From NCBI GenBank assembly GCA_964364175.1, contig CAYILR010000008.1, positions 32,001 to 96,000 of the forward strand: 64,000 nt of DNA, in the 5' to 3' direction. Every line of letters begins with the position of its first letter. The stretch's first letter is position 1. The position numbers were made by a program, and so were the translations under genes. The notes under the pieces are model-generated. The model did not search any database and had not been told where the DNA came from. It worked only from the letters and a program-made list of their open reading frames with translations. Shown one piece after another: positions 6,845-63,858 of the stretch. Source of the stretch: an uncultured Bacteriovoracaceae bacterium. GTDB lineage: Bacteria; Bdellovibrionota; UBA1018.

Positions 6845-7168
6845 CTACATCTTGCCCATCTCCTCCAGCCGGACCGCCGCGTAGCCGCGTTGGAGCTTGA
6901 TCGACTTCAAGGCGTCCTTGTAGGGGCCTTGCAGGTTCTTCAACTCCTCTTTCAGTTCCTTGATCTTCTCATCGGCTTCCAGCTTGTCGTCGGTCTCTTT
7001 CTCGTGTTGTGCGAGTGACACGAGGCGATCTCGAAGCTCTTGCTCGCTCATGCTCTGCATGGCTTCGACCACGGCTTCACCTGCCGCCTTGAGCAGCTTC
7101 TCTTCCAGCTTGGTGCCGGTGCTCTTGGCGCCCCAGTCACCACCGTTGTTGCCTTTGCCTTTACCCAT
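6845..7168 (-). CDS. small coiled-coil protein
   Basis: 107-codon ORF; ATG preceded by GAAGGAGA; Glu/Lys-rich heptad-like sequence. Confidence 0.6.
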   Translation of the reverse strand: MGKGKGNNGGDWGAKSTGTKLEEKLLKAAGEAVVEAMQSMSEQELRDRLVSLAQHEKETDDKLEADEKIKELKEELKNLQGPYKDALKSIKLQRGYAAVRLEEMGKM

Positions 7169-7203
7169 AGTGAATCTCCTTCGGTAGAGGTGCCTTGTAG
7201 CAG

Positions 7204-8718
7204 CTACCAGCCACCCTTGGCCTTCTTTTTCTTCTGGTTGCCGATCTTCGGCGGGATGACGGGTTCGTCCTCCTCGACAGCGGCGGTCTTGACCGGCTTG
7301 GTGGTCTTCTTCGGCGGCGGTGCCTCCGCCTCCTCAGCGGCCTCCTCCGCCTCGAAGGACTCCTCCCCCTCCTCCGATTCATCCTCGTCGTTGCCGCTCA
7401 AGGACGACGCCTTGGAGGTCTTCTGGCCTGTCAGGCCCACGTCCTCCTCGTCGGACGCCTTGGTCTTGTCCTTCGAGTTGCGGTAGCGCTTCACAGCCTC
7501 GCCGTTGGCGAGCGCCGCGTAGCAAGCATTGAAGAACGTGTTGGTGCCGTCCGCGCGTTGCTTGCGGATGATGGTCTCCAGCGCCGCGGGCGACGGGTAC
7601 TTGCCGTCGATCTTGAGCCTGGTGACGCCGAGGAACTTCATGATGAGGTCGAGGGCACCTGAGAAGTCCTTGGCGGCGACAAGCTCCTTCGCCTTCTTCG
7701 TGAAGGCGTCGACCTCTTCCTTCTTCGCCTTCGTCAGCGCCTTCTCCACGTTCTTCATCTGGATGTCGAGGTTGAATTTGTCGAGGCCGCTGATGGTCAA
7801 ACCCTTGGCGTCCTTGGTGAGATAGCCCGCCTTCTTGGCAAACGTCATCGCGTCGTTGGCCGGATCGAATCCCTGGCCGAGGTGCAGGAACACCTCAGCC
7901 TCCTGCATCGGGATGAAGTTCTTGTTCTTGTGGGTCTTGAAGCGCGTCATCTGGAAGACGCCGCCATCGTCCAACTCGATCTGCTTGCCGCGTCCGATGC
8001 GAACCAGGTTGTCTGTCGAGAACTGCCAGGCGTTGCCACCAGGGATCGACTCTGGGCTCTGGTACGGGTTGCCGACGTTCGATCGGACCTGGTTGGTCGC
8101 CACCAGCGAGACGTGCTTGCGGGTCAGCAGCCCCTTCAACATGCCCCAATACTTCGAGTGCATCGAAGCTCGGACAGCCGGGCGCTTGGACTCCTCCAGC
8201 TTGAACTCGTTGCGCTCGGCCATGGTCGCGACCGAGTCGATGAAGATGACCAACTGCGGCAAGCCGTAGTGCTTGTCCGGAAGCTGGTTGCACGCCGCGA
8301 TGATCATCTCGTAGGTGCCGTTGCCGCTCTCGGGCCGGTAGTAGGTCAGGACGGGGTCCTTGTTCGAGCGGTCCATGCCGAGCGTGTCGATGTACGCCGC
8401 ATCAGTGGTACCCTCGTGGTCGAAGAACACGGTAGGGATACCGAGCTTGTGCAGGAACGCTGCCGCTGAATATACAAGAGAAGACTTACCAACTCCGGCA
8501 GGACCATATATTTGGAAGACCTGGCCGCCGTAGTAGCCGCCTCCCATGATCAAGCTCAGGGTCAACGAACCCGCCGACAGGTAGTCAGCTTCCTCCTTCT
8601 GTCGAAGCTCGATGGCGTGAACCTTCTTCTCCTTCTCCAACTTTCCGAACAGAGACAACACATTCTTGGCGCTGAGCTTCTCGGTCTTTTGCTCAACCTC
8701 TTGCTTCTTGCTTCCCAT
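7204..8718 (-). CDS. RecA/UvsX-family recombinase
   Basis: LSAGSLTLSLIMGGGYYGGQVFQIYGPAGVGKSSLV matches the RecA-fold Walker A region, followed by a Walker B-like VIFIDSV and an acidic/basic tail. I prefer the ATG at 8718 (MGSKKQE); the ORF is open to 8832. Confidence 0.75.
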   Translation of the reverse strand: MGSKKQEVEQKTEKLSAKNVLSLFGKLEKEKKVHAIELRQKEEADYLSAGSLTLSLIMGGGYYGGQVFQIYGPAGVGKSSLVYSAAAFLHKLGIPTVFFDHEGTTDAAYIDTLGMDRSNKDPVLTYYRPESGNGTYEMIIAACNQLPDKHYGLPQLVIFIDSVATMAERNEFKLEESKRPAVRASMHSKYWGMLKGLLTRKHVSLVATNQVRSNVGNPYQSPESIPGGNAWQFSTDNLVRIGRGKQIELDDGGVFQMTRFKTHKNKNFIPMQEAEVFLHLGQGFDPANDAMTFAKKAGYLTKDAKGLTISGLDKFNLDIQMKNVEKALTKAKKEEVDAFTKKAKELVAAKDFSGALDLIMKFLGVTRLKIDGKYPSPAALETIIRKQRADGTNTFFNACYAALANGEAVKRYRNSKDKTKASDEEDVGLTGQKTSKASSLSGNDEDESEEGEESFEAEEAAEEAEAPPPKKTTKPVKTAAVEEDEPVIPPKIGNQKKKKAKGGW

Positions 8719-8728
8719 GAAGTACCTC

Positions 8729-9201
8729 TCAAGTTTTGATGATGAATCGGTCGATTTCGGCGCTAAGGGCGTCCAACAAATTGACATAGCCCGCAGGGCT
8801 GGGCGCGACACGGCGGATAAAAGACTTTCCACCGACGTCTTGCGCCAAGAACTGACCGTTATCTCCGATAGACACAGAAGACCGAAACAGGATAGTGCGC
8901 CTCTTCACGAGGCGGACTTGAGGAAGCCAGCAAGCACTGATGGTGGTCATCAGCTTCGCATCGTTCCTATCCAAGAGGAGCCGGTGATAGCTGACTCTAG
9001 GACGTTCCTTTGTCCAGTTGGTGAGACCCTCGTCGAGGGTCCCACCGGCCTCTGTGAGCTTATCGAGGACACGGTAAGCCAGAGCCGGGATGCCCGGCTT
9101 GACCTTAGGCACAGCCTTCAGGTCCTCAAGAAGGAGAAGAAGCAGAAACCGATCCCCCACAGAGGTGAATAGGTGCTCCACCTCGGCGGGAGATACGGCC
9201 A
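8729..9201 (-). CDS. hypothetical protein
   Basis: The ORF is open to 9232; the ATG at 9201 is preceded by AAGGAAAAGAGG. Confidence 0.5.
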
Positions 9202-31936: not shown

Positions 31937-32329
31937 TCAGAACGGCAGATCATCGTCGGCCTCGAAGCCCCGATCTTCGACGCTCGCCATCATCGCACGG
32001 TCGCGTTCCTGGTCGAGGAAGTAGTCGGCACGCAAGTCTTCGAGGTCATGTTCGGCCTCGCGGTCGCGCTCCTCACCGGAGCCACCGCAGGCGGAGCAGG
32101 TGGACCCGTCGTACATGCCCTCGCCAGAGCCCGCGCACTTGGAGCAGAGCGGAGCCTCGGCCGCCCACAGGATCTGCACGGAATCTCGGTAGGAATCCGG
32201 GCAATCCGGGTCGCCGTGGTACAGCGGCGCGTTCTCGACTCCGGCGTCGCGCAGCGCCTCCCTGGCCGCCTGGACTTCGTCGTCCGTGTCGGTGAGGTGG
32301 GGTTCGCCGTCGATCAAGATGTAGCTCAC
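31937..32329 (-). CDS. small acidic protein with CxxCxGxG zinc knuckles
   Basis: GTG at 32329 preceded by AGGAAGGAAGG; contains CSKCAGSGEG...CSACGGSGE. Confidence 0.5.
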   Translation of the reverse strand: MSYILIDGEPHLTDTDDEVQAAREALRDAGVENAPLYHGDPDCPDSYRDSVQILWAAEAPLCSKCAGSGEGMYDGSTCSACGGSGEERDREAEHDLEDLRADYFLDQERDRAMMASVEDRGFEADDDLPF

Positions 32330-36606: not shown

Positions 36607-36989
36607 GCGAAGCACAGTTCAACACGATGCTGACCGAGATCGAGAAGCAGATCGACTCCATGGACGAGAACCCTCCGCACATCCGCACGCGAGTCCTGTT
36701 CTTCCAGGCCATGGCCAAGCTCCTCGACGCCGACCGCTACATCAAGCCCGTCTACTCCCCGGTGAGGCTGGCCGTGGCCTGCATGACGATCAAGGTCTCT
36801 GTTCCTTCGGGAGTGGAGGAACAGACCATCGAAAACATGGTCCGCGTCATGGCGAAGGGCGCCGCCAAGGGCGTCATCCTCTACGCCAAGCGCGTTGCCT
36901 TGGTCGCGGAGTTGGACCTCATCAGCATCGTCGACGACATCATCGCAGCGGCCTTGAAGGACGTGAACGTCAAATTGGAGCTTTCATGA
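36603..36989 (+). CDS. hypothetical protein
   Basis: 128-codon ORF with ATGA overlaps on both sides, directly upstream of rtcB. Confidence 0.5.
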   Translation: MSEAQFNTMLTEIEKQIDSMDENPPHIRTRVLFFQAMAKLLDADRYIKPVYSPVRLAVACMTIKVSVPSGVEEQTIENMVRVMAKGAAKGVILYAKRVALVAELDLISIVDDIIAAALKDVNVKLELS

Positions 36990-38212
36990 GCGGACCTGAG
37001 ATTCTCGACGAGGGCGGCGCACCCATCTACGCCTGGACCAAAGGTGTGGAGCGCGAGGCGAGCGCGATGGAGCAGGTGGCGAAGCTGTCGAGGCTCCCCA
37101 TCATCCACGATCACGTCGCAATCATGGCAGATATGCACATGGGCATCGGCGCGACGGTGGGCTCGGTCATCGCAACCAAGGGCGCGATCATTCCAAGCGC
37201 AGTCGGCGTCGACATTGGGTGCGGCGTCATAGCTACTCGCACGAGCTTGAAGGCGAGCGACCTGCCCGAGAGCCTCGGAGGTCTACGTTCTGCGATCGAG
37301 CGCGCGGTGCCCCACGGCCGCACCTCCAATGGCGTCGCCGGCCAGGACCGGGGAGCCTGGGGTTCGCTGCCTGGGCCGGTTGATGCCGCCTGGAAGGCAG
37401 GACTCCACGATCGCTGGCAGGCCGTCGTCGACAAGCACCCGAAGGCCGCCGCCAAGAACACCGTTCACCAGCTTGGAACTCTTGGAACGGGCAATCACTT
37501 CGTTGAGGTCTGCCTCGACGAGGAACAGCACGTCTGGGTGATGTTGCACTCGGGGTCGCGCGGGCTCGGCAACCGCTTCGGTGAATACTTCATCGAGCTT
37601 GCCAAGGAGGACATGGGTCACCTGATCCACAACCTCCCGGACAAGGACCTGGCGTACCTCGCCGAGGGCACCGAGCACTTCAAGGACTACGTCGAGGCCG
37701 TCTCGATGGCCCAGGACTTCGCGCGCGTGAACCGCGAGATCATGATGGACCGGACCCTCGGCGCCCTGCGCAACTCCGGTGTGCTTCCGCCGTTCCAGTG
37801 GAAGTTGGAAACCACGAACTGCCACCACAACTATGTACAGAAGGAAACTCACCTTGGTGAGGAGGTCTTCATCACCCGCAAGGGCGCCGTCCGGGCTGGC
37901 CTCGGCGACATGGGGATAATCCCCGGCGCAATGGGCCGAAAAAGTTTCATCGTGCGGGGCAAGGGCTGCGCAGAGGCGTTCCACTCGTGCTCCCACGGCG
38001 CGGGCCGGAAGATGAGCCGCACGCAGGCGAAAAAGACCTTCACGTTGGAGGACCACGTCAAAGCGACCGAGGGTGTCGAGTGCCGCAAGGACGCCGACGT
38101 CATTGACGAGACGCCGATGGCCTACAAGGACATCGACGCCGTCATGGCCGCGCAGAGCGACCTCGTCGAGATCGTCCATACCCTCCAGGCCGTCGTTTGC
38201 GTGAAGGGTTGA
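36986..38212 (+). CDS. rtcB: RtcB-family RNA 3'-phosphate/5'-OH ligase
   Basis: MADMHMGIGATVGSV, AVGVDIGCG, GTLGTGNHFVE, HSGSRGLG, CHHNY and SCSHGAGR match conserved RtcB metal and GMP-histidine motifs. Confidence 0.9.
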   Translation: MSGPEILDEGGAPIYAWTKGVEREASAMEQVAKLSRLPIIHDHVAIMADMHMGIGATVGSVIATKGAIIPSAVGVDIGCGVIATRTSLKASDLPESLGGLRSAIERAVPHGRTSNGVAGQDRGAWGSLPGPVDAAWKAGLHDRWQAVVDKHPKAAAKNTVHQLGTLGTGNHFVEVCLDEEQHVWVMLHSGSRGLGNRFGEYFIELAKEDMGHLIHNLPDKDLAYLAEGTEHFKDYVEAVSMAQDFARVNREIMMDRTLGALRNSGVLPPFQWKLETTNCHHNYVQKETHLGEEVFITRKGAVRAGLGDMGIIPGAMGRKSFIVRGKGCAEAFHSCSHGAGRKMSRTQAKKTFTLEDHVKATEGVECRKDADVIDETPMAYKDIDAVMAAQSDLVEIVHTLQAVVCVKG

Positions 38213-43881: not shown

Positions 43882-44421
43882 ATGGCGGTAAAAATCTCTG
43901 CGATGGCCGTCCTCCTGTCGGACGTGGTGGGACACAACTGGGGGTTTTTCAGCCGCGATGACGACCGGATGCACATTCAAACGGTCGACCGAGAATCTCT
44001 CAAAAACCCCAAGCTTCAAGCCAAGGTCTGGTTGGAAGCCCGCGGTGAGCGTGTCTTCGAGATCGAGGCGAATGGGGACTTGTCTGCAAAGGCGATCAAA
44101 GCGCTCTTTCAGGAAGTGAAGGACAACGAGGAGTACATCGAGCAGGAGTGGGTCAACTGGATGGCGGAGACAGGCAGGCTGGTGGTGAAGAAGCTGGGGG
44201 AAAAGGTTGGACTTTTTGCCTATCCGAAGACGCACAACCAGTACGAAGCCTACATCGACCTGAGAAGTGAGTTCCCCGGCGTAAAGGACTTCTCGACGTG
44301 GGTGGCATCCTACGATGGGGGTTCAGGGCTCTTGGCCATCGGTCCAGCAGCAAAAGACCAAGACCGCAGAAACCACATGGATCTTGTCCCTTTCCTCTTC
44401 AAAGGAAAGAGGCGGGCCTAA
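43882..44421 (+). CDS. DUF4160-like protein (paralog of 60613-61233)
   Basis: AVLLSDVVGHNWGFFSRDDDRMHIQT...AKVWLEARGERVFEIEANGDLSAKAIKALFQEVKDNEEYIEQEW aligns along its length with the 60613-61233 product. Confidence 0.5.
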   Translation: MAVKISAMAVLLSDVVGHNWGFFSRDDDRMHIQTVDRESLKNPKLQAKVWLEARGERVFEIEANGDLSAKAIKALFQEVKDNEEYIEQEWVNWMAETGRLVVKKLGEKVGLFAYPKTHNQYEAYIDLRSEFPGVKDFSTWVASYDGGSGLLAIGPAAKDQDRRNHMDLVPFLFKGKRRA

Positions 44422-50714: not shown

Positions 50715-51120
50715 GGGGATGATCTGGTTTCGACACGGGAGGAAGAACGCAGAGAGCGAGCCGGGGACGTTTGCAACCTCGTCAAAAAGCGAACAAAACC
50801 AAAAAAGCCAACGACAACGTCGAGGCTGCTCCCGCTCTCATGGCGGCCTGAAAGGGTCGCTCCTGAGGAAGGAGCAAGAGACAGGGCCTCAACAGCCTGA
50901 GTCTCCGGCAGACCGCCAGAGTGCCTTCTGTAGCGGACCCTGACGAAACCACTGAAGGCTGGGCATCAAGCAGGGCCAACCTGCTCGCTTGATGAGGAGG
51001 AAAACTGGGTTGGCGCCGCCTCGGGCAGCACATCAGTCGGTGGGTATGCACCGAACACGCTCGTAGCGCTCTGTTGACGGATTCTTGTGGACGCGAGTTC
51101 GATTCTCGCCATCTCCACCA
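50715..51120 (+). ncRNA. ssrA: tmRNA (ssrA); tag reading frame ANDNVEAAPALMAA
   Basis: The 5' end GGGGATGATCTGGTTTCGACA pairs with the 3' end GGACGCGAGTTCGATTCTCGCCATCTCCACCA (acceptor stem with a G3-U70 wobble, T-arm, CCA). The resume codon GCC is at 50807 and the frame gcc aac gac aac gtc gag gct gct ccc gct ctc atg gcg gcc tga ends at 50851. Confidence 0.9.
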
Positions 51121-51240: not shown

Positions 51241-51813
51241 CTAGTCCAAACGACCTTGGCTTTTGAGCCAGCGGGCGGTCTGCGCCCTGTTGTGCAGGTC
51301 GGTGACGGCGTACTTTCCCAGATGTTGAAGTACGATCTTCTGCAAAAGCTTGGTGTTCAGTTTCACGCTCGACAAGAGGAAGTCGAGATCCGCCAAATCT
51401 TTCGGACGCGCAGCGACCATTTTCATCGCAACCAAGAACTCGGGCGTGACCACCGGGATATCAAAACCGGTGACCTTCTTTGCAGAGTCAATAGCCGCGT
51501 CATACAAGTCGCGGTACTCGTCTCCTCGGTCAATGAAGTCAAACGGTACACCGGCTATCTCGACCGAACGACCACCGACATTGAGGCGGGCGCCCTTCTT
51601 TGCGAAGGAAGGAACCTGAGACACCATGAGGTCGACATCTTTGGTGAGACGCGAGCTTCCGTAAGCTTGCATGGCAAAGCCGCCACCTAGGGCAAACTGA
51701 ACTCGTGGATGCTCAGCTTTGAGCCTTGTAACCACGTCCGCCAACGCTTCCTTCACCTCCGTGAAGGACAACGGAGGACGAGGCGGGCCAGAAGACCGGA
51801 CTTTAGCAGCCAT
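51241..51813 (-). CDS. minimal nucleotidyltransferase-fold protein (AbiEii/MNT-like, tentative)
   Basis: GGGFAMQAYGSSRLTKDVDLMV fits GGxAxxxxGxxRxTxDxDL, and VVTPEFLVAMKMVAARPKDLADLDFLL follows. Confidence 0.5.
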   Translation of the reverse strand: MAAKVRSSGPPRPPLSFTEVKEALADVVTRLKAEHPRVQFALGGGFAMQAYGSSRLTKDVDLMVSQVPSFAKKGARLNVGGRSVEIAGVPFDFIDRGDEYRDLYDAAIDSAKKVTGFDIPVVTPEFLVAMKMVAARPKDLADLDFLLSSVKLNTKLLQKIVLQHLGKYAVTDLHNRAQTARWLKSQGRLD

Positions 51814-51988: not shown

Positions 51989-52927
51989 GTGGCCATCAAG
52001 AAGAAGACCTTTTCGGCGGCGGACCGGGCGGCGTACATCGAGTCGAAGAAGAACGAGGTCAAGGGTCTCCTCGACACGCTCACCGACAACGTCAAGGCGC
52101 TCACGTCCAGCGACGACTGGAAGAAGTACCTCAAGTTCCAGACCTTCTTCCGCCGCTACAGCTTCAACAACGTCCTTCTCATCACGATCCAGTGCCCGAA
52201 CGCCACGGCGGTCGCCGGATACCGCACCTGGCAGAAGGCCGGGCGCCAGGTGAAGAAGGGCGCCAAGAGCATCAAGATCTTGGCCCCCATCGTCCGCAAG
52301 TTCAACGTCAAGGCTGAGAACGACCAGGGCCAGATGGAGGAGACCGAGAAGAAGAGCCTCTACTTCCGCGCTGTGCCGGTGTTCGACGTGAGCCAGACCG
52401 AAGGTGAGCCACTCCCGACGGCGCAGCGCTGCACGCTCCTGAGCGGCAACGAGGCCGAGGCGACCGAGGCGTTCGACACGCTCTTGAGCTTCGCCTCCGA
52501 CCTCGGCTACAAGGTCGAAGACGAGGCGCTGGCCGAGGGGTTCAACGGCTACGTGGACTTCAACGCGAAGCGCATCGTCCTTCGCGCCTCGAACCCCAAG
52601 CTCCAGAAGGCCAAGACCTTGGCCCACGAGATCGCCCACGCGCTCCTACACAGCACCCCCGAGCTTCGCAAGGACATTGCCCATGACTCGTCGGACCACC
52701 GCGAGGTCGAGGCTGAGTCGGTGGCCTTCTGCGTGATGAACGCCTTTGGCCTCGACTCCGGCAGCTACAGTTTTGGGTATGTCGCAACCTGGGCTGGCGG
52801 CGACGCGAAGAAGATCCAGCAGTCGGCGTCGCGTATCCAGAAGGCCGTGTGCCAGATCTTGGACGCGGTCCTGCCCGAGAACAGCCAGGACGAGAGCGAC
52901 GAAGACAGCGCCGCCGAAGCGGCATGA
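51989..52927 (+). CDS. ArdC-like protein (N-terminal ssDNA-binding domain plus HExxH zincin domain)
   Basis: LKFQTFFRRYSFNNVLLITIQCPNATAVAGYRTWQKAGRQVKKGAKSIKILAPI matches the ArdC N-terminal pattern, and HEIAHALLH lies in the C-terminal half. Confidence 0.65.
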   Translation: MAIKKKTFSAADRAAYIESKKNEVKGLLDTLTDNVKALTSSDDWKKYLKFQTFFRRYSFNNVLLITIQCPNATAVAGYRTWQKAGRQVKKGAKSIKILAPIVRKFNVKAENDQGQMEETEKKSLYFRAVPVFDVSQTEGEPLPTAQRCTLLSGNEAEATEAFDTLLSFASDLGYKVEDEALAEGFNGYVDFNAKRIVLRASNPKLQKAKTLAHEIAHALLHSTPELRKDIAHDSSDHREVEAESVAFCVMNAFGLDSGSYSFGYVATWAGGDAKKIQQSASRIQKAVCQILDAVLPENSQDESDEDSAAEAA

Positions 52928-52966: not shown

Positions 52967-53527
52967 ATGACGATGAAGAAAGAGCGGATCAACCACTACG
53001 AGTTCGTTGCCGACGTGCGCAAGCGCCTCGAAGTCGGGCTCGCCAAGTACGGCAGCGCGCTGCACATCAGTGGCAACATGGGCGCCGGCAGCATCTTCGC
53101 CGAGATCGAGCCGACCTTCGGGCTCGCCGTGAAGCTGGCCGTCGATGCGGACCTGCTGCGCGACCCCGAGGGTGGCGCCGTCAAGACGACCGTCACCTGC
53201 TCGTGCTCACACCAGACGCCGGGCTTTGCGCTGCTCATGGCGTCGATGATGCAGGATGCGGCCAACCTCGCGCTCCTCATCGAGGCGGCCTACGACAGTA
53301 AGCTCGTTTTCTTCGAGGCGAAGTGCATCGTCGAGTTGACGGCCGTCGGCGACAAGAAGATCGAAGTCATCAAGCTCGTTCGCGCGATCACCGGACTGCC
53401 GCTCAAGGAGGCCAAGGACTTCGTCGACGCTGCGCCCAAGAACGTCGGCGAAGCGCTGCCCAGGATCGAAGCCGAAGCCTTCAAGGCGAGGCTCGAAGCC
53501 CAAGGCGCCATCGTCACCCTCAAGTGA
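52967..53527 (+). CDS. protein with a C-terminal ribosomal bL12 (L7/L12) C-terminal-domain homolog
   Basis: [65 protein letters not shown] aligns with the E. coli bL12 CTD ([27 protein letters not shown]...AEALKKALEEAGAEVEVK). The N-terminal 110 aa or so are unrelated. Confidence 0.7.
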
Positions 53528-58833: not shown

Positions 58834-58918
58834 CGGAGAAAGGTGGAGTCGAACCACTCACGCTTGCGCGTGTCTCGGTTTAGCAGACCGATGCCAGACC
58901 GCTCCGGCGACATTCTCC
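58834..58918 (-). tRNA. tRNA-Ser (anticodon GCT), class II
   Basis: Hand fold of the reverse complement gives anticodon arm TCGGT CTGCTAA ACCGA, a long variable arm, and T-loop TTCGACT. There are mismatches at 7:66 and 49:65, and CCA is not encoded. Confidence 0.75.
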
Positions 58919-58972
58919 CCAATGCGCCATGCTTCTTTACACGGAAGAAGCTGGCGCCCCAGATAGACCTTC

Positions 58973-59060
58973 TGGCGGGTCAGGCAGGATTTGAACCTGC
59001 GGCACCCGAAGGTGCTCTTGTTTTCAAGACAAGCGCCTTAAGCCGCTCGGCCACTGACCC
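58973..59060 (-). tRNA. tRNA-Ser (anticodon TGA), class II
   Basis: GGGTCAG acceptor, anticodon arm CTTGT CTTGAAA ACAAG, variable arm AGCACCTTCGGGTGCCG, T-arm GCAGG TTCAAAT CCTGC, G73, and CCA encoded. Confidence 0.9.
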
Positions 59061-59069
59061 AAAAACTGA

Positions 59070-59156
59070 AGGAAGACTGAGCAGTCGAAGCCCAAGCCCT
59101 TGTGAGGCTCCCATCGCGTTCGAAGCGAGTCCGGCGCCCTGTCCGGTTAGTCTTCC
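59070..59156 (-). tRNA. tRNA-Ser (anticodon CGA), class II
   Basis: GGAAGAC/GTCTTCC acceptor, anticodon loop TTCGAAC, long variable arm, T-arm TGGGC TTCGACT GCTCA. CCA is not encoded. Confidence 0.75.
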
Positions 59157-59167
59157 ATACCTATCAA

Positions 59168-59255
59168 TGGCGGACAGCGTGGGTCACGATCCCAACACCC
59201 AAAGGTGCCGCTCGATTTCCAGTCGAGGGTCAGCCCAAGCCAGACTTCACTGTCC
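59168..59255 (-). tRNA. tRNA-Ser (anticodon GGA), class II
   Basis: GGACAGT/GCTGTCC acceptor, anticodon arm CTCGA CTGGAAA TCGAG, long variable arm, G73, and CCA encoded. The T-loop ATCGTGA is unusual. Confidence 0.8.
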
Positions 59256-59276
59256 ATACCTGTGAACAGAACACGA

Positions 59277-59365
59277 TGACGGTGGCGGGAGTCGAACCCG
59301 CGAGTACCTTGCGGCTAGTCCTCGCGTTTAGGGCGAGCGCCTTGTCCACCTTGGCTTGCACCGTC
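59277..59365 (-). tRNA. tRNA-Leu (anticodon TAA), class II, C at position 33
   Basis: Perfect acceptor GACGGTG/CACCGTC, anticodon arm CTCGC CCTAAAC GCGAG, long variable arm, T-arm GCGGG TTCGACT CCCGC, A73. CCA is not encoded. Confidence 0.75.
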
Positions 59366-59373
59366 GTTGAGAA

Positions 59374-59533
59374 GCTCGAAGAACAAGTGTTGAAACCGGA
59401 TATGCCTTTCGGCTACGCCGCGTCTTCCAATTCCGCCATACCTCCGTTGGTGGAGGCACCAGGATTTGAACCAATGGACGAGCTTTCGCTCAGCGTATTT
59501 TACAGATAACCAGTTGTCGTCGGTTCTTCGAGC
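59374..59533 (-). ncRNA. permuted tRNA-Tyr-like element or YrlA-like tRNA mimic, bracketed by an 11-bp inverted repeat
   Basis: The minus strand reads, in order: GCTCGAAGAAC (59533-59523); a spacer; CTGTAAAA then TACGC; variable hairpin GAGC GAAA GCTC; T-arm with TTCAAAT; TGCCTCC A CCA; AC; GGAGGTA TG GCG GAATTGGAAGA CGC G GCGTA; hairpin GCC GAAA GGC; a spacer; GTTCTTCGAGC (59384-59374). GCGTA pairs with TACGC, and GGAGGTA pairs with TGCCTCC. Confidence 0.55.
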
Positions 59534-59546
59534 AAGAAACAGAAAC

Positions 59547-59666
59547 AGAGAGCAAGTGGCGTCAGTGGAAGTTGGCACCGCGCCTACGGCCCTTTACAGG
59601 GGCCGCACTGGGAGTCGAACCCAGCGATCTCCGTTGTGTAGATAATCCACAGAACATCGGCTCTCT
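59547..59666 (-). ncRNA. structured tRNA-like element (7-bp closing stem plus four hairpins); identity unknown
   Basis: The AGAGAGC/GCTCTCT closing stem encloses an irregular hairpin, a canonical T-arm CTGGG TTCGACT CCCAG, a 7-bp hairpin with loop CTGTAAA, and a 9-bp hairpin. It does not fold into a cloverleaf on either strand. Confidence 0.4.
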
Positions 59667-59670
59667 TGAC

Positions 59671-59755
59671 TGGTGCGCAAGGCGGGACTCGAACCCACAC
59701 GCCCGAAGGCACTCGACTCTGAATCGAGCAAGACTACCAGTTCCATCACTTGCGC
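59671..59755 (-). tRNA. tRNA-Leu (anticodon CAG), class II
   Basis: GCGCAAG/CTTGCGC acceptor, anticodon arm CTCGA TTCAGAG TCGAG, variable arm TGCCTTCGGGCGT, T-loop TTCGAGT, A73, and CCA encoded. Confidence 0.9.
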
Positions 59756-59762
59756 AAGAACA

Positions 59763-59825
59763 AGCTCGTATGAGGACTCGAACCTCGTTCCCCTTCGGGA
59801 CGCCTCCTGCGCGCTGGCTACGAGC
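59763..59825 (-). ncRNA. 62-nt tRNA-like element lacking an anticodon loop
   Basis: GCTCGTA/TACGAGC acceptor (extendable to 10 bp), D-like hairpin GCC AGCGCGCAGGA GGC, a 4-bp stem with GAAG tetraloop (TCCC GAAG GGGA) where the anticodon arm should be, and T-arm GAGG TTCGAGT CCTC. Confidence 0.45.
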
Positions 59826-59829
59826 TTGA

Positions 59830-59914
59830 TGGTGCGTGAGGCGGGAGTCGAACCCGCACGTCCGAAGACACTAGGCTCTCGACCTAGCAAGGCTACCAGT
59901 TACATCACTCACGC
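59830..59914 (-). tRNA. tRNA-Leu (anticodon GAG), class II, C at position 33
   Basis: GCGTGAG/CTCACGC acceptor, anticodon arm CTAGG TCGAGAG CCTAG, variable arm, T-arm GCGGG TTCGACT CCCGC, A73, and CCA encoded. Confidence 0.85.
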
Positions 59915-59922
59915 ACACAAAA

Positions 59923-60010
59923 TGGTGGGAGAGGCCGGACTCGAACCGGCTCAGTCACAAGGACAACAGTTTTACAGACTGCCATAGCTCGCCATCTCTA
60001 TCGCTCTCCC
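59923..60010 (-). tRNA. tRNA-Tyr (anticodon GTA), class II
   Basis: GGGAGAG/CTCTCCC acceptor, D-arm ATAG/CTAT, anticodon arm GCAGT CTGTAAA ACTGT, 15-nt variable arm, T-arm GCCGG TTCGAGT CCGGC, A73, and CCA encoded. Confidence 0.9.
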
Positions 60011-60015
60011 GAAGT

Positions 60016-60100
60016 TGGTGCAGTGTGATGGAGTCGAACCACCCGAGCCGAAGCACCTGGGTTACAACCAGGCCCGCTACCCCTACGGTGTTAACACTGC
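60016..60100 (-). tRNA. second tRNA with anticodon GTA (Tyr), class II, Leu-like body
   Basis: GCAGTGT/ACACTGC acceptor, anticodon arm CCTGG TTGTAAC CCAGG, variable arm TGCTTCGGCTCG, T-arm GGTGG TTCGACT CCATC, A73, and CCA encoded. The D-stem is weak. Confidence 0.8.
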
Positions 60101-60105
60101 ATAGT

Positions 60106-60190
60106 TGGTGCGAGCGGCGGGAATCGAACCCGCATGACTTTCGTCGCAGGAGTCTAGATCCTGGGTGTCTGCCAGTTCCACCACGCTCGC
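60106..60190 (-). tRNA. tRNA-Leu (anticodon TAG), class II, C at position 33
   Basis: GCGAGCG/CGCTCGC acceptor, D-stem GTG/CAC, anticodon arm CAGGA TCTAGAC TCCTG, variable arm, T-arm GCGGG TTCGATT CCCGC, A73, and CCA encoded. Confidence 0.85.
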
Positions 60191-60194
60191 ATGT

Positions 60195-60278
60195 TGGTGC
60201 CGTCACCGAGACTTGAACTCGGACGCCCGAAGGCCCACGATTTTGAGGCGTGGTTGTCTACCTTTCCATCATGACGGC
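60195..60278 (-). tRNA. tRNA-Leu (anticodon CAA), class II
   Basis: GCCGTCA/TGACGGC acceptor, anticodon loop CTCAAAA with a C-T mismatch at 31:39, variable arm GGCCTTCGGGCGT, T-arm TCGAG... TTCAAGT, A73, and CCA encoded. Confidence 0.85.
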
Positions 60279-60304: not shown

Positions 60305-60326
60305 CCCAACCTTTGCGTTATTCGGT

Positions 60327-60351
60327 TGTCAAAGAGCAGAGAACAGATCAG
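60327..60351 (-). promoter_or_regulatory. putative promoter of the tRNA array (CTGATCTG element plus TTGACA; -10 unclear)
   Basis: The minus strand reads CTGATCTGTTCTCTGCTCTTTGACA. It has the same upstream element as three other promoters, but no good -10 hexamer lies at 16-18 nt. Confidence 0.35.
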
Positions 60352-60386: not shown

Positions 60387-60411
60387 GAAGGCCCCCTTTC
60401 GGGGGGCCTTC
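60387..60411 (-). terminator. GC-rich hairpin downstream of the 60613-61233 gene (possible terminator)
   Basis: gaaggccccc tttc gggggccttc with a 10-bp stem; the U-tract is weak on either strand. Confidence 0.4.
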
Positions 60412-60612: not shown

Positions 60613-61233
60613 TCAGCGAGATCCGGAGAAGATGAAGGGCGCAAGTTGGAAATGCGCCCAGCCGTCTTGAGGCGTTCCCTTCGTTCCGACGGCAAGCACT
60701 CCAAGCTCTTCATCGAGCCGCGCTCGCGCCAAGGAAGGATTGGCGTCCCAGGTGCCGCCTTTCTTCCAGCGACCTGGAAGCTCTTTTCGCAGATCGATCG
60801 TGCGCTTGTACGTGTTGTGGCTGTCGGGATACACCGTCAGCGTCACCATGCTCCCATCAAGGGAAGCTAGGAGCCAGTCCTTCTCGATCAACCAGTGGAC
60901 CCAACTGTTCTCGATAAGCTCCTGGTCCTTTCTCACTTGGGCCAGGAGCTTCTTCTTGTCGGACGCCGACAAGGAACCCGCCGCGAGTTCAAAGACCCGT
61001 TCACCCCTCTTCTCCAACCAAAACTTGGCTGTGACCCCTTGTTTTAGGGACTTCGGATCAACGGTCTGGAGGTGTATCCGTTCGTCGTCATTGCTGAACC
61101 AACCCCAATTGTGGGACGCCACGTTCTTCAGCACTACAGCCATGGCCGTGATCGAACCACCGGCCTGGAGCTTCGCCAGGGCCTTCTCCACGGCTGCAAG
61201 ACGAGCTTCGATGGTCTTTCCCTTTGTCGTCAT
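60613..61233 (-). CDS. DUF4160-like protein (paralog of 43882-44421)
   Basis: I prefer the ATG at 61233 (MTTKGKTIEARL). AVVLKNVASHNWGWFSNDDERIHLQT...AKFWLEKRGERVFELAAGSLSASDKKKLLAQVRKDQELIENSW parallels the other copy. Confidence 0.5.
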   Translation of the reverse strand: MTTKGKTIEARLAAVEKALAKLQAGGSITAMAVVLKNVASHNWGWFSNDDERIHLQTVDPKSLKQGVTAKFWLEKRGERVFELAAGSLSASDKKKLLAQVRKDQELIENSWVHWLIEKDWLLASLDGSMVTLTVYPDSHNTYKRTIDLRKELPGRWKKGGTWDANPSLARARLDEELGVLAVGTKGTPQDGWAHFQLAPFIFSGSR

Positions 61234-61271: not shown

Positions 61272-61493
61272 CTACATCGACCTGGTCTTCCAGGCGAGCC
61301 GGACCCGATCCTGGCAATCGGCGCAGACGCAGGTCTTGCCGGCTTGCTTGAGCGCTCCCCAGAAGGGGCCAGGCTCGATGTCAAAGAGGTCTTGGTAGAC
61401 GATGTGCTCTCCGGTCTCGACCAGCCGCAGGACCCTCTTGGTCTTGTCCTTCGGGCTCTCGACCGAGGACAACGCCGAGCACGACGTGCTCAC
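61272..61493 (-). CDS. hypothetical protein
   Basis: The GTG at 61493 overlaps the phosphoesterase stop as GTGA; 73 codons; contains CVCADC. Confidence 0.45.
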   Translation of the reverse strand: MSTSCSALSSVESPKDKTKRVLRLVETGEHIVYQDLFDIEPGPFWGALKQAGKTCVCADCQDRVRLAWKTRSM

Positions 61494-62140
61494 AAGTCCA
61501 CCACCACCGGTGCTCGACAGACGTCGATCTGATTCTGCCCATCCAACTGCGAGACGTTCGCAGCCTCAACCCCGTGAAACCGTCCTCGGCCGTAGCCCTC
61601 GTGGACATGCCCAAAGACATGGAACTTCGGCTTGGCCCGAACTACCTCACGCAACAATCCAGGACACCCGTAGTGTTCGAGGGCCTTCGTCTGTTTGTTC
61701 AAGACTGCATCAAAGATCGTGTGTGGTGGCCCGTGCGTGATGAGCAGGTCCAGGCCCTCTGGGATCTGCGACCAGCGAACCTCGCCCTCACGCGCTCCGT
61801 AGCCGAACGCCCAGCCGCGGAACTCCGGCGTATAAGGGCTCCCCCAGAGCTTCTTGCCCATAACCTCGCAGCCTTGGTCCTTGAGAACGTAGTCGGCGTT
61901 CGAGAGCCAGGCTCGCGCGGTCCACCACGACTCCTGAAAGGCGAACTCGTGATTGCCTGGGATAACGACCTTGTAGGGATGGTCTTGCTCCCCCAACCAG
62001 TCATTGAAGTCCAGGATCTCTTTCTGAGTGCCTTTGAGGGTGAAGTCGCCCGCATGAACCAACACGTCCCCATCGGGCAACTTTGGCAGCCTGCGCTGTT
62101 GGTTGTGGGTGTCTGAGATACATACAACCCTGACAGTCAC
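61490..62140 (-). CDS. calcineurin-like metallophosphoesterase
   Basis: CISDTH, HAGDF, PGNHE and FGHVHEGYG are the dinuclear metallophosphoesterase motifs. The GTG at 62140 is preceded by CAGGAGC; the ORF is open to 62398. Confidence 0.7.
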   Translation of the reverse strand: MTVRVVCISDTHNQQRRLPKLPDGDVLVHAGDFTLKGTQKEILDFNDWLGEQDHPYKVVIPGNHEFAFQESWWTARAWLSNADYVLKDQGCEVMGKKLWGSPYTPEFRGWAFGYGAREGEVRWSQIPEGLDLLITHGPPHTIFDAVLNKQTKALEHYGCPGLLREVVRAKPKFHVFGHVHEGYGRGRFHGVEAANVSQLDGQNQIDVCRAPVVVDL

Positions 62141-62592: not shown

Positions 62593-63858
62593 ATGATGAA
62601 GGCGTTTCGTTTCCGTGTTTACCCAACCGCCGAACAAGAGGCGAGGCTGGAGGCATGGGAAGGCGCTTTGAGATTCCTCTGGAATCTTGCTCATGAACAA
62701 CGCTTGATGGGACTGCACACCGTGCGTGACCGACGCCGCTATTACACGGCGGTTGATCAGCAACGCGGTCTAACAGAACTCCGGGCGGAGCTACCGTGGT
62801 TGGCAGATGTTCCACGCCATGTCTGCGCCCAGGTCCTCGTAGAGTTAGATAAGGCTTGGCAGCGGACTTTCAAGAAGTTGGGCGGAGAGCCTCGTTTCAA
62901 GAAATTGGGCCGTGATGGCGTCGCTATCTGCGAGACCGATCCCAAGGTATGGAGCTTCGTCAATGACCACATCCGTTTTCCAAAACTGGGCGTGCTGAAG
63001 ACAGTGCTGCACCGACCGATCGATGGTAAGCCAAAGACATGTAGCCTAACACGAGACGTAGATGCTTGGTTCGTGTCCATCGTTTGTGAGTTACCAGGTG
63101 AGGAGCCGAAGCCCGGTACGGCAACTGGGCCTTCGGTAGCTATTGACCGAGGCGTTGCCTTGCTGCTCGCTGACAGCGATGGGCGAACTGTCGAGAACCA
63201 GGAACATCTACAGCGAGCCAGGAAACACCTAGCTCGCGCGCAACGGCGGGTTAGCAAGAAAATGAAAGGATCGAAGAACCGCGAGAAGGCGAAACGCCGG
63301 GTTGCGGTTCTTCATCGAAAGATCCGACGACAACGAGATCACCAACTGCACGTCCAAAGCTCGTACTATGCCAAGAACCACGGCGTAGTTATTGTAGAGG
63401 ACCTCAACATCCGAGGCATGACGAAGTCAGCCTCCGGTACAAAGGAGAAGCCAGGTAAGAATGTAGCTGCAAAGTCCGGCCTCAACCGCTCGATTCTCGA
63501 TGCGGGTTGGGGACGCTTTGCTCAAATGCTCGACTACAAGCTGAAGTGGCGCGGTGGAATTCTTCTGAAGGTTCCAGCGCACTATTCGTCGCAGACGTGC
63601 GCGAAGTGTGGCCATGTCGATGCTAAAAATCGGGTATCCCAAGCGCGGTTTTGGTGTACAGCGTGCGATTACGAAGCCAACGCTGATATCAATGCTGCGT
63701 GTGTACTTCTCAGCCGTGGAATCCACGGTGCAGCAGTCTGTGGAGGATCTTCCGCCCTAGGGAAGCCTGCGAAGCAGAAACTCCGCGTTGCGAGACGTGG
63801 AAATCAACCAACGATAGGAATCTCCTCGGAGAAACCTATGGTCACGGGGAATTTGTGA
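62593..63858 (+). CDS. tnpB: TnpB (OrfB_IS605 family, RuvC-like RNA-guided nuclease)
   Basis: N-terminal MKAFRFRVYPTAEQE, RuvC residues in VAIDRGV, VVIVEDLN and NADINAA, and zinc finger CAKCGH...CTACDY. Confidence 0.85.
   Translation: MMKAFRFRVYPTAEQEARLEAWEGALRFLWNLAHEQRLMGLHTVRDRRRYYTAVDQQRGLTELRAELPWLADVPRHVCAQVLVELDKAWQRTFKKLGGEPRFKKLGRDGVAICETDPKVWSFVNDHIRFPKLGVLKTVLHRPIDGKPKTCSLTRDVDAWFVSIVCELPGEEPKPGTATGPSVAIDRGVALLLADSDGRTVENQEHLQRARKHLARAQRRVSKKMKGSKNREKAKRRVAVLHRKIRRQRDHQLHVQSSYYAKNHGVVIVEDLNIRGMTKSASGTKEKPGKNVAAKSGLNRSILDAGWGRFAQMLDYKLKWRGGILLKVPAHYSSQTCAKCGHVDAKNRVSQARFWCTACDYEANADINAACVLLSRGIHGAAVCGGSSALGKPAKQKLRVARRGNQPTIGISSEKPMVTGNL

Follow-up and report, generated by a model that had tools for sequence, protein, structure and literature searches.

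The DNA analysed here, referred to as the window, is a stretch of 64 kb (positions 32,001 to 96,000 of contig CAYILR010000008.1) that is part of a large uncultured groundwater phage; coordinates given without a contig name are those of the window. On its minus strand, between 58834 and 60278, lies an array of tRNA genes that decode leucine, serine, and tyrosine only, all of them of class II, i.e., with a long variable arm. The same window encodes a nucleotidyltransferase (NTase) resembling MenT1, as well as a UvsX-like recombinase, a Dda-like helicase, a sigma-70-like protein, and the RNA ligase RtcB, and its G+C content is about 60%. Contigs identical to the window are present in Hainich groundwater metagenomes (ENA ERZ1292616-18). 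Among 50,697 deposited phages, no relative at the DNA level was found by megablast, and a sensitive blastn search of deposited phages with the whole array matched single tRNAs only, with a coverage of at most 12%. Compared with the proteins of deposited phages, the UvsX of the window reaches no more than 30% identity.

The original prediction, made from the sequence of the window, had described eleven canonical tRNAs in the array (Table 1). In a first scan at the default threshold of ARAGORN, nine of them were called on the minus strand at the predicted coordinates, together with a transfer-messenger RNA (tmRNA) elsewhere in the window. Lowering the threshold to 90% added Ser-GGA and Ser-CGA and nothing else; these two are not fully canonical, the Ser-CGA anticodon stem, for example, containing one C/T mismatch. 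Both recur in the same order in the diverged relative described below, and are thus regarded as conserved genes and not as noise. At a threshold of 80%, “Ile-TAT” and “Arg-CCG” were called in gaps of the array, one of them overlapping Leu-CAG; they were rejected as class I tRNAs because they are better explained as parts of two structured elements, A and B (see below). Rfam lists six of the array tRNAs at its gathering score.

All eleven structures obtained with ARAGORN contain the extra stem-loop of a long variable arm, as had been predicted, and the lengths of the tRNAs are 84-89 nt. The discriminator is A73 in every Leu and Tyr tRNA, G73 in three of the four Ser tRNAs, and U73 in Ser-CGA, and the CCA end is encoded in 8 of the 11 genes. 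By standard wobble rules the anticodon set reads six Leu, six Ser, and two Tyr codons, i.e., all codons of the three amino acids, again in agreement with the prediction. Most pairs of tRNAs within the array are 50-65% identical, so that the array is not a recent amplification; even the two Tyr copies are only 59% identical to each other. Leu-GAG and Leu-CAG are 81% identical, which indicates a recent duplication with an anticodon switch.

The absence of class I tRNAs from the window, also predicted, was upheld by two methods: ARAGORN found none interleaved in the array and, at its default threshold, no other tRNA in the window, and Rfam gave no match to the tRNA clan outside the array and the tmRNA at E<=1. 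With ARAGORN, no tRNA was found in the right flank, over 9.75 kb past the window end (contig L001), or in the left flank, over 3.2-5.6 kb past the window end in two syntenic relatives. Proteins of the window are recorded on a 102-kb contig, and a relative is found on a 163-kb contig; the window is thus roughly half a genome. The whole genome probably measures 100-160 kb, of which about 80 kb were scanned.

Table 1. Features of the window. Strands are those of the window, and so are positions, except where the relative L080 is named.
Feature	Position	Strand	Remarks
tRNA-Leu(CAA)	60195-60278	-	class II, A73, CCA encoded; ARAGORN default; Rfam tRNA 35.1 bits
tRNA-Leu(TAG)	60106-60190	-	class II, A73, CCA encoded; ARAGORN default; Rfam 48 bits
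tRNA-Tyr(GTA) copy 1	60016-60100	-	class II, A73, CCA encoded; ARAGORN default; Rfam 38.8 bits
tRNA-Tyr(GTA) copy 2	59923-60010	-	class II, A73, CCA encoded; ARAGORN default; Rfam tRNA-Sec model 36 bits
tRNA-Leu(GAG)	59830-59914	-	class II; ARAGORN default
tRNA-Leu(CAG)	59671-59755	-	class II, A73, CCA encoded; ARAGORN default; Rfam 41.1 bits
tRNA-Leu(TAA)	59277-59365	-	class II, A73, CCA not encoded; ARAGORN default
tRNA-Ser(GGA)	59168-59255	-	class II, G73, CCA encoded; T-loop ATCGTGA (atypical); ARAGORN 90% only
tRNA-Ser(CGA)	59070-59156	-	class II, U73, without CCA; ARAGORN 90% only; Rfam 25.5 bits
tRNA-Ser(TGA)	58973-59060	-	class II, G73, CCA encoded; ARAGORN default; Rfam 62.6 bits
tRNA-Ser(GCT)	58834-58918	-	class II, G73, CCA not encoded; ARAGORN default; Rfam tRNA-Sec model 47.5 bits
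tl74, tRNA-like	59756-59829	-	74 nt; sequence; fold -30.2 kcal/mol
Element A, conserved structured RNA	59545-59666; L080 2088-2224	-	about 125 nt; folds, nhmmer
Element B, circularly permuted class II tRNA-Tyr-like	59374-59533	-	sequence, inverted repeat, un-permutation
NTase, AbiEii/DUF1814 family	51241-51813	-	190 aa; motifs intact, basic N-terminal tail
206-aa protein	60613-61233	-	fold not recognised; directly upstream of array, same strand
Paralogue of 206-aa protein	43882-44421	+	50% identity; sequence comparison
Calcineurin-like metallophosphoesterase	61490-62140	-	Pfam PF00149; PADLOC PDC-S10 at 1.3e-71; PHROG 1649
tmRNA	50715-51120	+	ARAGORN; Rfam 130.6 bits; tag ANDNVEAAPALMAA
RtcB RNA ligase	36986-38212	+	Pfam PF01139 at 1e-122; 21 kb from array

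The composition of the array was compared with that of 23 non-redundant unrelated viral loci, in which 26 of 130 tRNAs (20%) are specific for Leu, Ser, or Tyr; in background arrays of at least four tRNAs the highest share of the three is 29%. The naive probability of eleven such tRNAs out of eleven is about 2e-8. Restriction to a single class is therefore as unusual as had been proposed: the restriction to Leu, Ser, and Tyr is real and non-random, and it is conserved in a diverged relative.

This relative, here named L080, was identified as IMGVR_UViG_3300028571_000031 (58 kb), and is the same phage as ENA k141_221317 (163 kb). It carries the nearest viral homologue of the window NTase (51% identity), and its UvsX, its primase, and its other proteins are 39%, 50%, and 33-50% identical, respectively, to those of the window. 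The L080 array contains nine Leu/Ser/Tyr genes in the order Leu-GAG, Leu-CAA, Leu-TAG, Tyr-GTA, Leu-CAG, element A, Ser-GGA, Ser-CGA, Ser-TGA, Ser-GCT, the four Ser genes being ordered as in the window; a 5'-half tRNA fragment also lies in the array. Ser-GGA, including its odd T-loop, is 83% identical between the two phages, and the other counterparts are 58-67% identical; as in the window, Ser-GGA and Ser-CGA are called by ARAGORN at 90% only. The L080 array adjoins UvsX and that of the window lies 50 kb from it, and the position of the NTase gene also differs. Given these different positions and the divergence of the proteins, both the array and the NTase have survived divergence and rearrangement. 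The flanks of the L080 array are free of tRNAs over 6.8 kb and 18 kb, save for one lone atypical tRNA-like gene.

Class II architecture, on which the original prediction had laid weight, is not strictly conserved in the relative. Two of the four Leu tRNAs of L080, Leu-GAG (1478-1553) and Leu-TAG (1790-1866), are 76-77 nt long and have short variable arms, and the conserved trait is thus the Leu/Ser/Tyr decoding set and not the long arm. The leucyl-tRNA synthetase of E. coli does not need the long arm, whereas seryl-tRNA synthetase and bacterial tyrosyl-tRNA synthetases do. Short-armed Leu tRNAs would escape an enzyme that reads the arm, which suggests that loss of the arm is a simple escape route. 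Short Leu tRNAs (74-79 nt) also occur in the unrelated phage arrays L005 and L017.

The lone tRNA-like gene of L080, “Ile-AAT” (7976-8052, minus strand), has a class I shape, lies 5.3 kb from the array, and shares homology with a lone “Leu-AAG” gene that is found beside an ART-PolyVal gene in a more distant clade, with homologues at L101 15464-15537, L102 11383-11457, and L103 8651-8724. In these genes the anticodon has A34 (AAT or AAG), position 37 is a pyrimidine, and the anticodon stem is mismatched at its base; they always lie just downstream of a large ART-PolyVal gene, and are absent from the window, L093, and L094. Searches for further array-bearing relatives returned L080 only, both with the Ser-GGA pattern in IMG/VR and with the element A pattern in JGI metagenomes. 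UvsX-based searches yielded five more syntenic lineages (L093, L094, L101-L105, L106), the contigs of which stop short of the array region. The distant relative L102 has a 613-aa gene (7162-9003) with intein-splicing and LAGLIDADG domains, located between the UvsX neighbourhood and the ART-PolyVal gene, and the UvsX homologue P0069 (835 aa) itself contains intein domains.

The gaps of the window array contain three tRNA-like elements, none of which matches an Rfam family (for element A, none at E<=10). The smallest, tl74, combines an acceptor-like stem of 9 bp with two hairpins, one D-like and one resembling a variable arm (TCCC GAAG GGGA), and with a canonical T arm, GAGGTTCGAGTCCTC; it lacks both an anticodon arm and a CCA end. 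Element B is bounded by a perfect inverted repeat of 11 bp (GCTCGAAGAAC/GTTCTTCGAGC). Enclosed by the repeat are, in this order, the anticodon loop CTGTAAAA, the 3' strand of the anticodon stem, the variable arm, the T arm, the 3' strand of the acceptor, and ACCA; after the linker AC come the 5' strand of the acceptor, the D arm, and the 5' strand of the anticodon stem. When un-permuted in silico, element B was called by ARAGORN at the default threshold as a tRNA-Tyr(GTA) of 89 nt, with a weak T stem. No other copy of tl74 or of element B was found in 1.77 Mb of loci.

Element A is the sole gap element conserved in L080, where it occupies the same position in the array; full-length nhmmer matches between the two phages were reciprocal (E about 0.002), with no match elsewhere in the same 1.77 Mb. 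Two helices, a closing one (AGAGAGC/GCTCTCT) and a second one (GTGGA/TCCAC), are accompanied by a T-arm-like hairpin, after which a closed 7-bp hairpin stands at the site of the acceptor 3' strand, followed by a GGCG/TGCC hairpin. The conserved termini read GAGAGCC...GGTGCCAAC.TCCA...CCACTTGCTCTCTG. The hairpins differ in sequence and keep their shape, as judged from two sequences, in which the variable hairpins are misaligned by MAFFT. The predicted structure of element A is thus a tRNA-like body with a closed acceptor end and with its termini at the “anticodon” end, a topology shared overall with element B.

Circularly permuted tRNA genes are known from Cyanidioschyzon merolae, and two-piece permuted tmRNA genes from alpha- and beta-proteobacteria. 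Element B resembles them in that a CCA-bearing 3' half lies upstream of the 5' half, with a linker of 2 nt and flanks able to pair, and differs from them as a single instance without homologue, with a weak T stem and a hypothetical maturation. Another known tRNA mimic is YrlA, a bacterial Y RNA-like molecule encoded beside rtcB/rsr. Element A shares with YrlA a tRNA-like body, a T arm, and a closed acceptor-like helix, and the phage also has an RtcB, but element A lies inside a tRNA array and, as stated, is not recognised by Rfam; no Ro/TROVE gene was seen among the gene calls inspected. The gap elements may be debris of segmental duplications, as in phage T6 (PMC13096335), precursors of split and ligated tRNAs, or mimics with a closed acceptor.

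Between the first tRNA and the protein genes upstream of the array there is a G+C-rich hairpin, GAAGGCCCCCCGAAAGGGGGCCTTC (60387-60411, minus strand), and about 40 nt before the first tRNA a motif, AACCGAATAA (60318-60327), that is also found upstream of the array of the relative. With a single occurrence in the window, the motif is no more frequent than expected by chance, and it was rejected as a phage promoter motif. A generic scan for promoters and terminators gave nothing informative, and a terminator or promoter role of the hairpin or of the motif would be conjecture.

The NTase gene had been described in the original prediction as one with a nucleotidyltransferase fold, which is right as to the fold; its identity as a MenT1-like member of the AbiEii family had been missed. 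The protein matches Pfam AbiEii (PF08843) at 1.6e-12, with 48.3 bits against a cutoff of 22.5, and the AbiEii models of PADLOC weakly. The deposited gene call of 143 aa loses the glycine motif and the homologues are 184-216 aa long, so the reading of 190 aa is preferred. Invariant in 16 homologues are G44 G45, S53 R55, D59 V60 D61, and D92 I94 R96 D98, and also K131 A134 R136 K138 D139 D142; all these residues are taken here to belong to the catalytic motifs of the family (GG/GS...D.D and K..A..R..KD..D). The sole sequence match in the PDB is 8AN4, with the GGxA...DVD motif aligned. An AlphaFold (AF2) model of high confidence (pLDDT 90) gave M. tuberculosis MenT1 (8AN5/8AN4) as the best Foldseek match, over the full length, with a probability of 1.0 and a TM score of 0.57-0.60. 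No match to the NTase was obtained by tblastn in the 50,697 deposited phages at E<=1e-3.

Cellular homologues of the NTase lie 56 nt downstream of a 114-aa open reading frame, which is the layout of a toxin-antitoxin system. No antitoxin gene was called next to the phage NTase, and no homologue of the 114-aa frame was found in the phage loci. The first 15 residues of the NTases of the window, P0002 (L085 lineage), and P0004 carry a net charge of +3 or +4; in the cellular homologues checked the N-terminus is neutral to acidic, and the basic tail is confined to the phage clade. The tail parallels the basic N-terminus that MenT3 requires for reading the variable loop (PMC11162799), which is no more than suggestive. 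MenT3 adds CMP to the 3' ends of tRNAs, with a strong preference for tRNA-Ser and weak activity on Leu and Tyr tRNAs, and its activity depends on the long variable loop (PMC11162799, PMC11541572). For AbiEii, a preference for class II tRNAs via the variable arm is probable (bioRxiv 10.64898/2026.01.19.700257). By analogy with these enzymes, the phage NTase would act on tRNA and prefer class II tRNAs. It shares with the MenAT/AbiE systems (MenT1, MenT3, AbiEii) the Pfam family, the invariant motifs, and the fold of MenT1, and differs by its basic tail, by the lack of a nearby antitoxin gene, and by its co-occurrence with a class II array; unlike those toxins, it is encoded by a lytic-looking large phage and is known here from its sequence and a model.

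A link between the NTase and the array is offered by the 206-aa protein gene directly upstream of the array. In lineage L085, whose NTase is 66% identical to that of the window, a homologue of the 206-aa protein (220 aa, 41% identity) ends 1 nt before the NTase start. The family has seven homologues and gave no match in Pfam, PHROG, or PADLOC, and an AF2 model of the window member (pLDDT 75) matched no fold in the PDB (best E 0.11). A role as an AbiEi/MenA-like antitoxin was considered and no support for it was found. The protein upstream of the NTase in L088 was examined as a further member of the family and turned out to be unrelated.

The explanation favoured here, at somewhat better than even chances, is that class II tRNAs are disabled via the variable arm during infection and that the array is a complete set of phage substitutes for them. 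The class II tRNAs of the host cell would be taken out of service by an enzyme that reads their shared long variable arm, the candidate activity being the addition of nucleotides to the 3' end by a MenT/AbiEii-type nucleotidyltransferase, which would block aminoacylation. The array, supplying all Leu, Ser, and Tyr decoders, would meanwhile keep phage translation going. We infer from the sequences that the phage tRNAs would be expressed, charged, and resistant, and that the array and the NTase may work together.

As the agent of such a block, the original prediction had proposed a host factor recognising class II tRNAs. Factors of this kind have indeed been published (MenT3), and the selective agent might be one of them. 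The phage has its own MenT1-like NTase without a nearby antitoxin gene, and hence it may itself be the source of the activity directed at class II tRNAs: its NTase would disable the class II tRNAs of the host early in infection, the phage copies would then be used, and some of them may be poor substrates of the NTase. Alternatively, the agent would be a host defence of the AbiE/MenT type or of the Septu/PtuAB type, all of them published. We lean slightly towards the phage NTase, because two very rare features co-occur and have been retained together in the clade, and because the partner gene of the NTase abuts the array. A more elaborate, self-contained “break and replace” system is considered quite unlikely; in it, the NTase would find Leu, Ser, and Tyr tRNAs of the host by their long variable arm and cap them at the 3' end, the array copies would resist, and element A, element B, and tl74 would, as mimics that cannot be modified, bind the NTase and time or restrain it in the manner of decoys or of an RNA antitoxin, or else be matured into tRNAs by RtcB.

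Several points weigh against a replacement set linked to the NTase. The main caveat is that an array of class I tRNAs might be present in the part of the genome beyond the scan, perhaps half of it. Both phages with array and NTase come from one clade and thus amount to a single evolutionary observation, and in six other viral NTase lineages (L081, L085, L137-L140; IMG/VR scans) no class II array was seen up to 10 kb from the NTase gene. The link through the 206-aa protein rests on one contig and on a protein with no recognisable fold. MenT1, the closest solved relative of the NTase, shows no tRNA preference in vitro (PMC11541572). The phage tRNAs keep their long arms and CCA ends, and resistance is not evident from their sequences. 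Finally, it is not obvious what the phage would gain by inflicting the block itself, since its tRNAs would be open to host mRNAs as well.

The first of these points leads to the view that the array is merely the class II sub-cluster of a larger set, with class I genes elsewhere in the genome, and that it reflects the history of duplication and not selection. This is the main rival explanation, but it is held to be unlikely. It draws on the sizes of the related contigs (up to 163 kb, with window proteins on one of 102 kb), compared with about 80 kb equivalents scanned, and on the frequent adjacency of Leu and Ser genes in unrelated mixed arrays (Leu-Leu-Leu-Ser-Ser in L005, 8804-9486); the 81% identity of Leu-GAG and Leu-CAG is a case of local duplication, and in relatives a lone tRNA-like gene of class I shape stands apart from the array. 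Mixed arrays, however, keep their class II genes contiguous with class I genes, whereas protein genes flank the window array, no further tRNA being found over 58 kb to one side of it and about 13 kb to the other, and the L080 array is similarly isolated but for its one lone tRNA-like gene. Moreover, members of the array are mostly too dissimilar (50-65% identity) for a simple history of duplication, and the complete coverage of three amino acids, maintained across relocation and protein identities of 39-51%, would not be expected from drift. The same conservation bears on the idea, the least probable of those considered, that the array is decaying cargo, in which tRNA genes and fragments were captured as a block and now serve hardly any function. 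Two of the eleven genes below the default threshold of ARAGORN, the truncated and permuted pieces in the gaps, and the 5'-half fragment in the L080 array would fit decay; yet acceptor stems, T arms, discriminators, and CCA ends are intact in most members, and the two phages still share the set, the Ser gene order, and the atypical Ser-GGA.

The contents of the window could also be read as a repair kit for tRNA 3' ends, in which the NTase, as a repair enzyme and not as a toxin, would join the metallophosphoesterase and RtcB in mending or shielding ends damaged by host nucleases, and the array would provide spare substrates. The occurrence of RtcB, phosphoesterase, NTase, and tmRNA in one window would agree with this, as would the lack of an encoded CCA in 3 of the 11 tRNAs and the acceptance of both CC and CCA ends by MenT enzymes (PMC11541572); defence nucleases that cut tRNA tails are reported to exist (PMC12851939). 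Repair is nevertheless very unlikely: the characterised members of the NTase family all block charging and none restores CCA (PMC11162799, PMC11541572), RtcB lies 21 kb from the array, and the restriction of the cargo to class II is left unexplained. Less probable still is the classical explanation for phage tRNAs (PMC10264068), that they boost the supply for codons or amino acids limiting in the host, here Leu, Ser, and Tyr. In 42 phage genes (8,419 codons) the three amino acids make up 15.6% of the residues, a share that might call for such a supply and yet is unremarkable, and no other amino acid is served. The GC3 of these genes is 0.78, and decoders are present for nearly unused codons, namely TTA (1% of Leu codons, 4 of 694), CTA (4%), TCA (6% of Ser codons), and AGT (5%), as well as for codons ending in G or C, which a G+C-rich host should already serve. 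Rare and commonest codons are thus provided for alike, as in a complete set and not as in a supplement tuned to need; codon supplementation fits poorly, as the original prediction had suspected.

Replacement of attacked host tRNAs by phage tRNAs is already known, as are the MenT/AbiE toxins. The closest parallels to a replacement set are the responses of phages to retron-Eco7 and Septu PtuAB (PMC11555353, PMC13096335), in which T5 has a resistant tRNA-Tyr and T6 shows a SegB-driven amplification of tRNA-Tyr; phage tRNA-Tyr neutralises the cleavage of the variable loop by PtuAB/Septu (PMC13096335). In these cases, too, a host tRNA is attacked by way of its variable loop and a class II tRNA of the phage takes its place or exceeds it in number, and gene dosage and partial duplicates are features of the tRNA region, the window having two Tyr genes and a permuted third. 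They differ from the window in that a single tRNA species in a mixed region faces a known host nuclease, whereas the window has the whole class and nothing else. The same logic of insurance applies to the large mixed arrays with which phages are proposed to escape anticodon nucleases (PMC10264068) and to the tRNA-Lys of T5 against PARIS (PMC11464382); mixed arrays differ in serving many or most amino acids, with Leu, Ser, and Tyr at 20-29% in the background sample, and in that the escape is proposed to lie in the anticodon loop. Bacterial Schlafens were considered as class II-specific nucleases and dropped, since the two that have been characterised cleave tRNAs for Lys, Met, and Ala or cut broadly in the T-loop (PMC13056530, PMC13462974).

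The remaining genes named in the original prediction, for RtcB, the tmRNA, and a metallophosphoesterase, were all confirmed in the window with Pfam, ARAGORN, and Rfam, as was the NTase gene. The metallophosphoesterase gene, whose match PDC-S10 is listed by PADLOC as a defence candidate, belongs to the gene string upstream of the array, an association that is only positional; of 30 scanned viral loci that contain homologues of it, 13 have tRNA or tmRNA genes within 10 kb. RtcB is a possible candidate partner for tRNA repair or for the joining of permuted pieces. Unrelated viral contigs bearing RtcB carry paired suppressor-type tRNAs, with two TCA anticodons beside a tmRNA in L020 (281-970) and two CTA anticodons in L024 (566-722). 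The one-piece tmRNA gene of the window stands tail to tail with the NTase gene, separated from it by 120 nt. Also adjoining the NTase gene is an anti-restriction cluster, with a gene for a fusion of ArdC-N and an M78 peptidase (51989-52927, plus strand); two ArdA genes lie in the right flank past the window end (L001 18814-19919). The gene at 52967-53527 (plus strand) encodes 186 aa and includes the C-terminal domain of ribosomal protein L7/L12 (Pfam PF00542, 1.3e-23). A gene of the TnpB / IS605 OrfB type (62593-63858, plus strand; HTH_OrfB_IS605, OrfB_IS605, Cas12f1-like_TNB) is located 2.3 kb from the array, and its best genomic homologues are 28-29% identical (185,579 genomes searched).

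Recent answers to the question of why phages carry tRNAs have come case by case, with one nuclease and one rescuing tRNA. What is new here is that a conserved array covers one structural class of tRNA completely and contains no other, that it occurs alongside a MenT-type enzyme of the phage, and that permuted or closed-acceptor tRNA-like RNAs are embedded in it. If the proposed explanation is true, it would be the first sign of a whole tRNA class as the unit of conflict between phage and host. The action of AbiE/MenT-type enzymes, which are among the commonest defence families, on class II tRNAs in infection is thereby made testable, and so are the offensive use of such enzymes by phages and their regulation by tRNA mimics with a closed acceptor.

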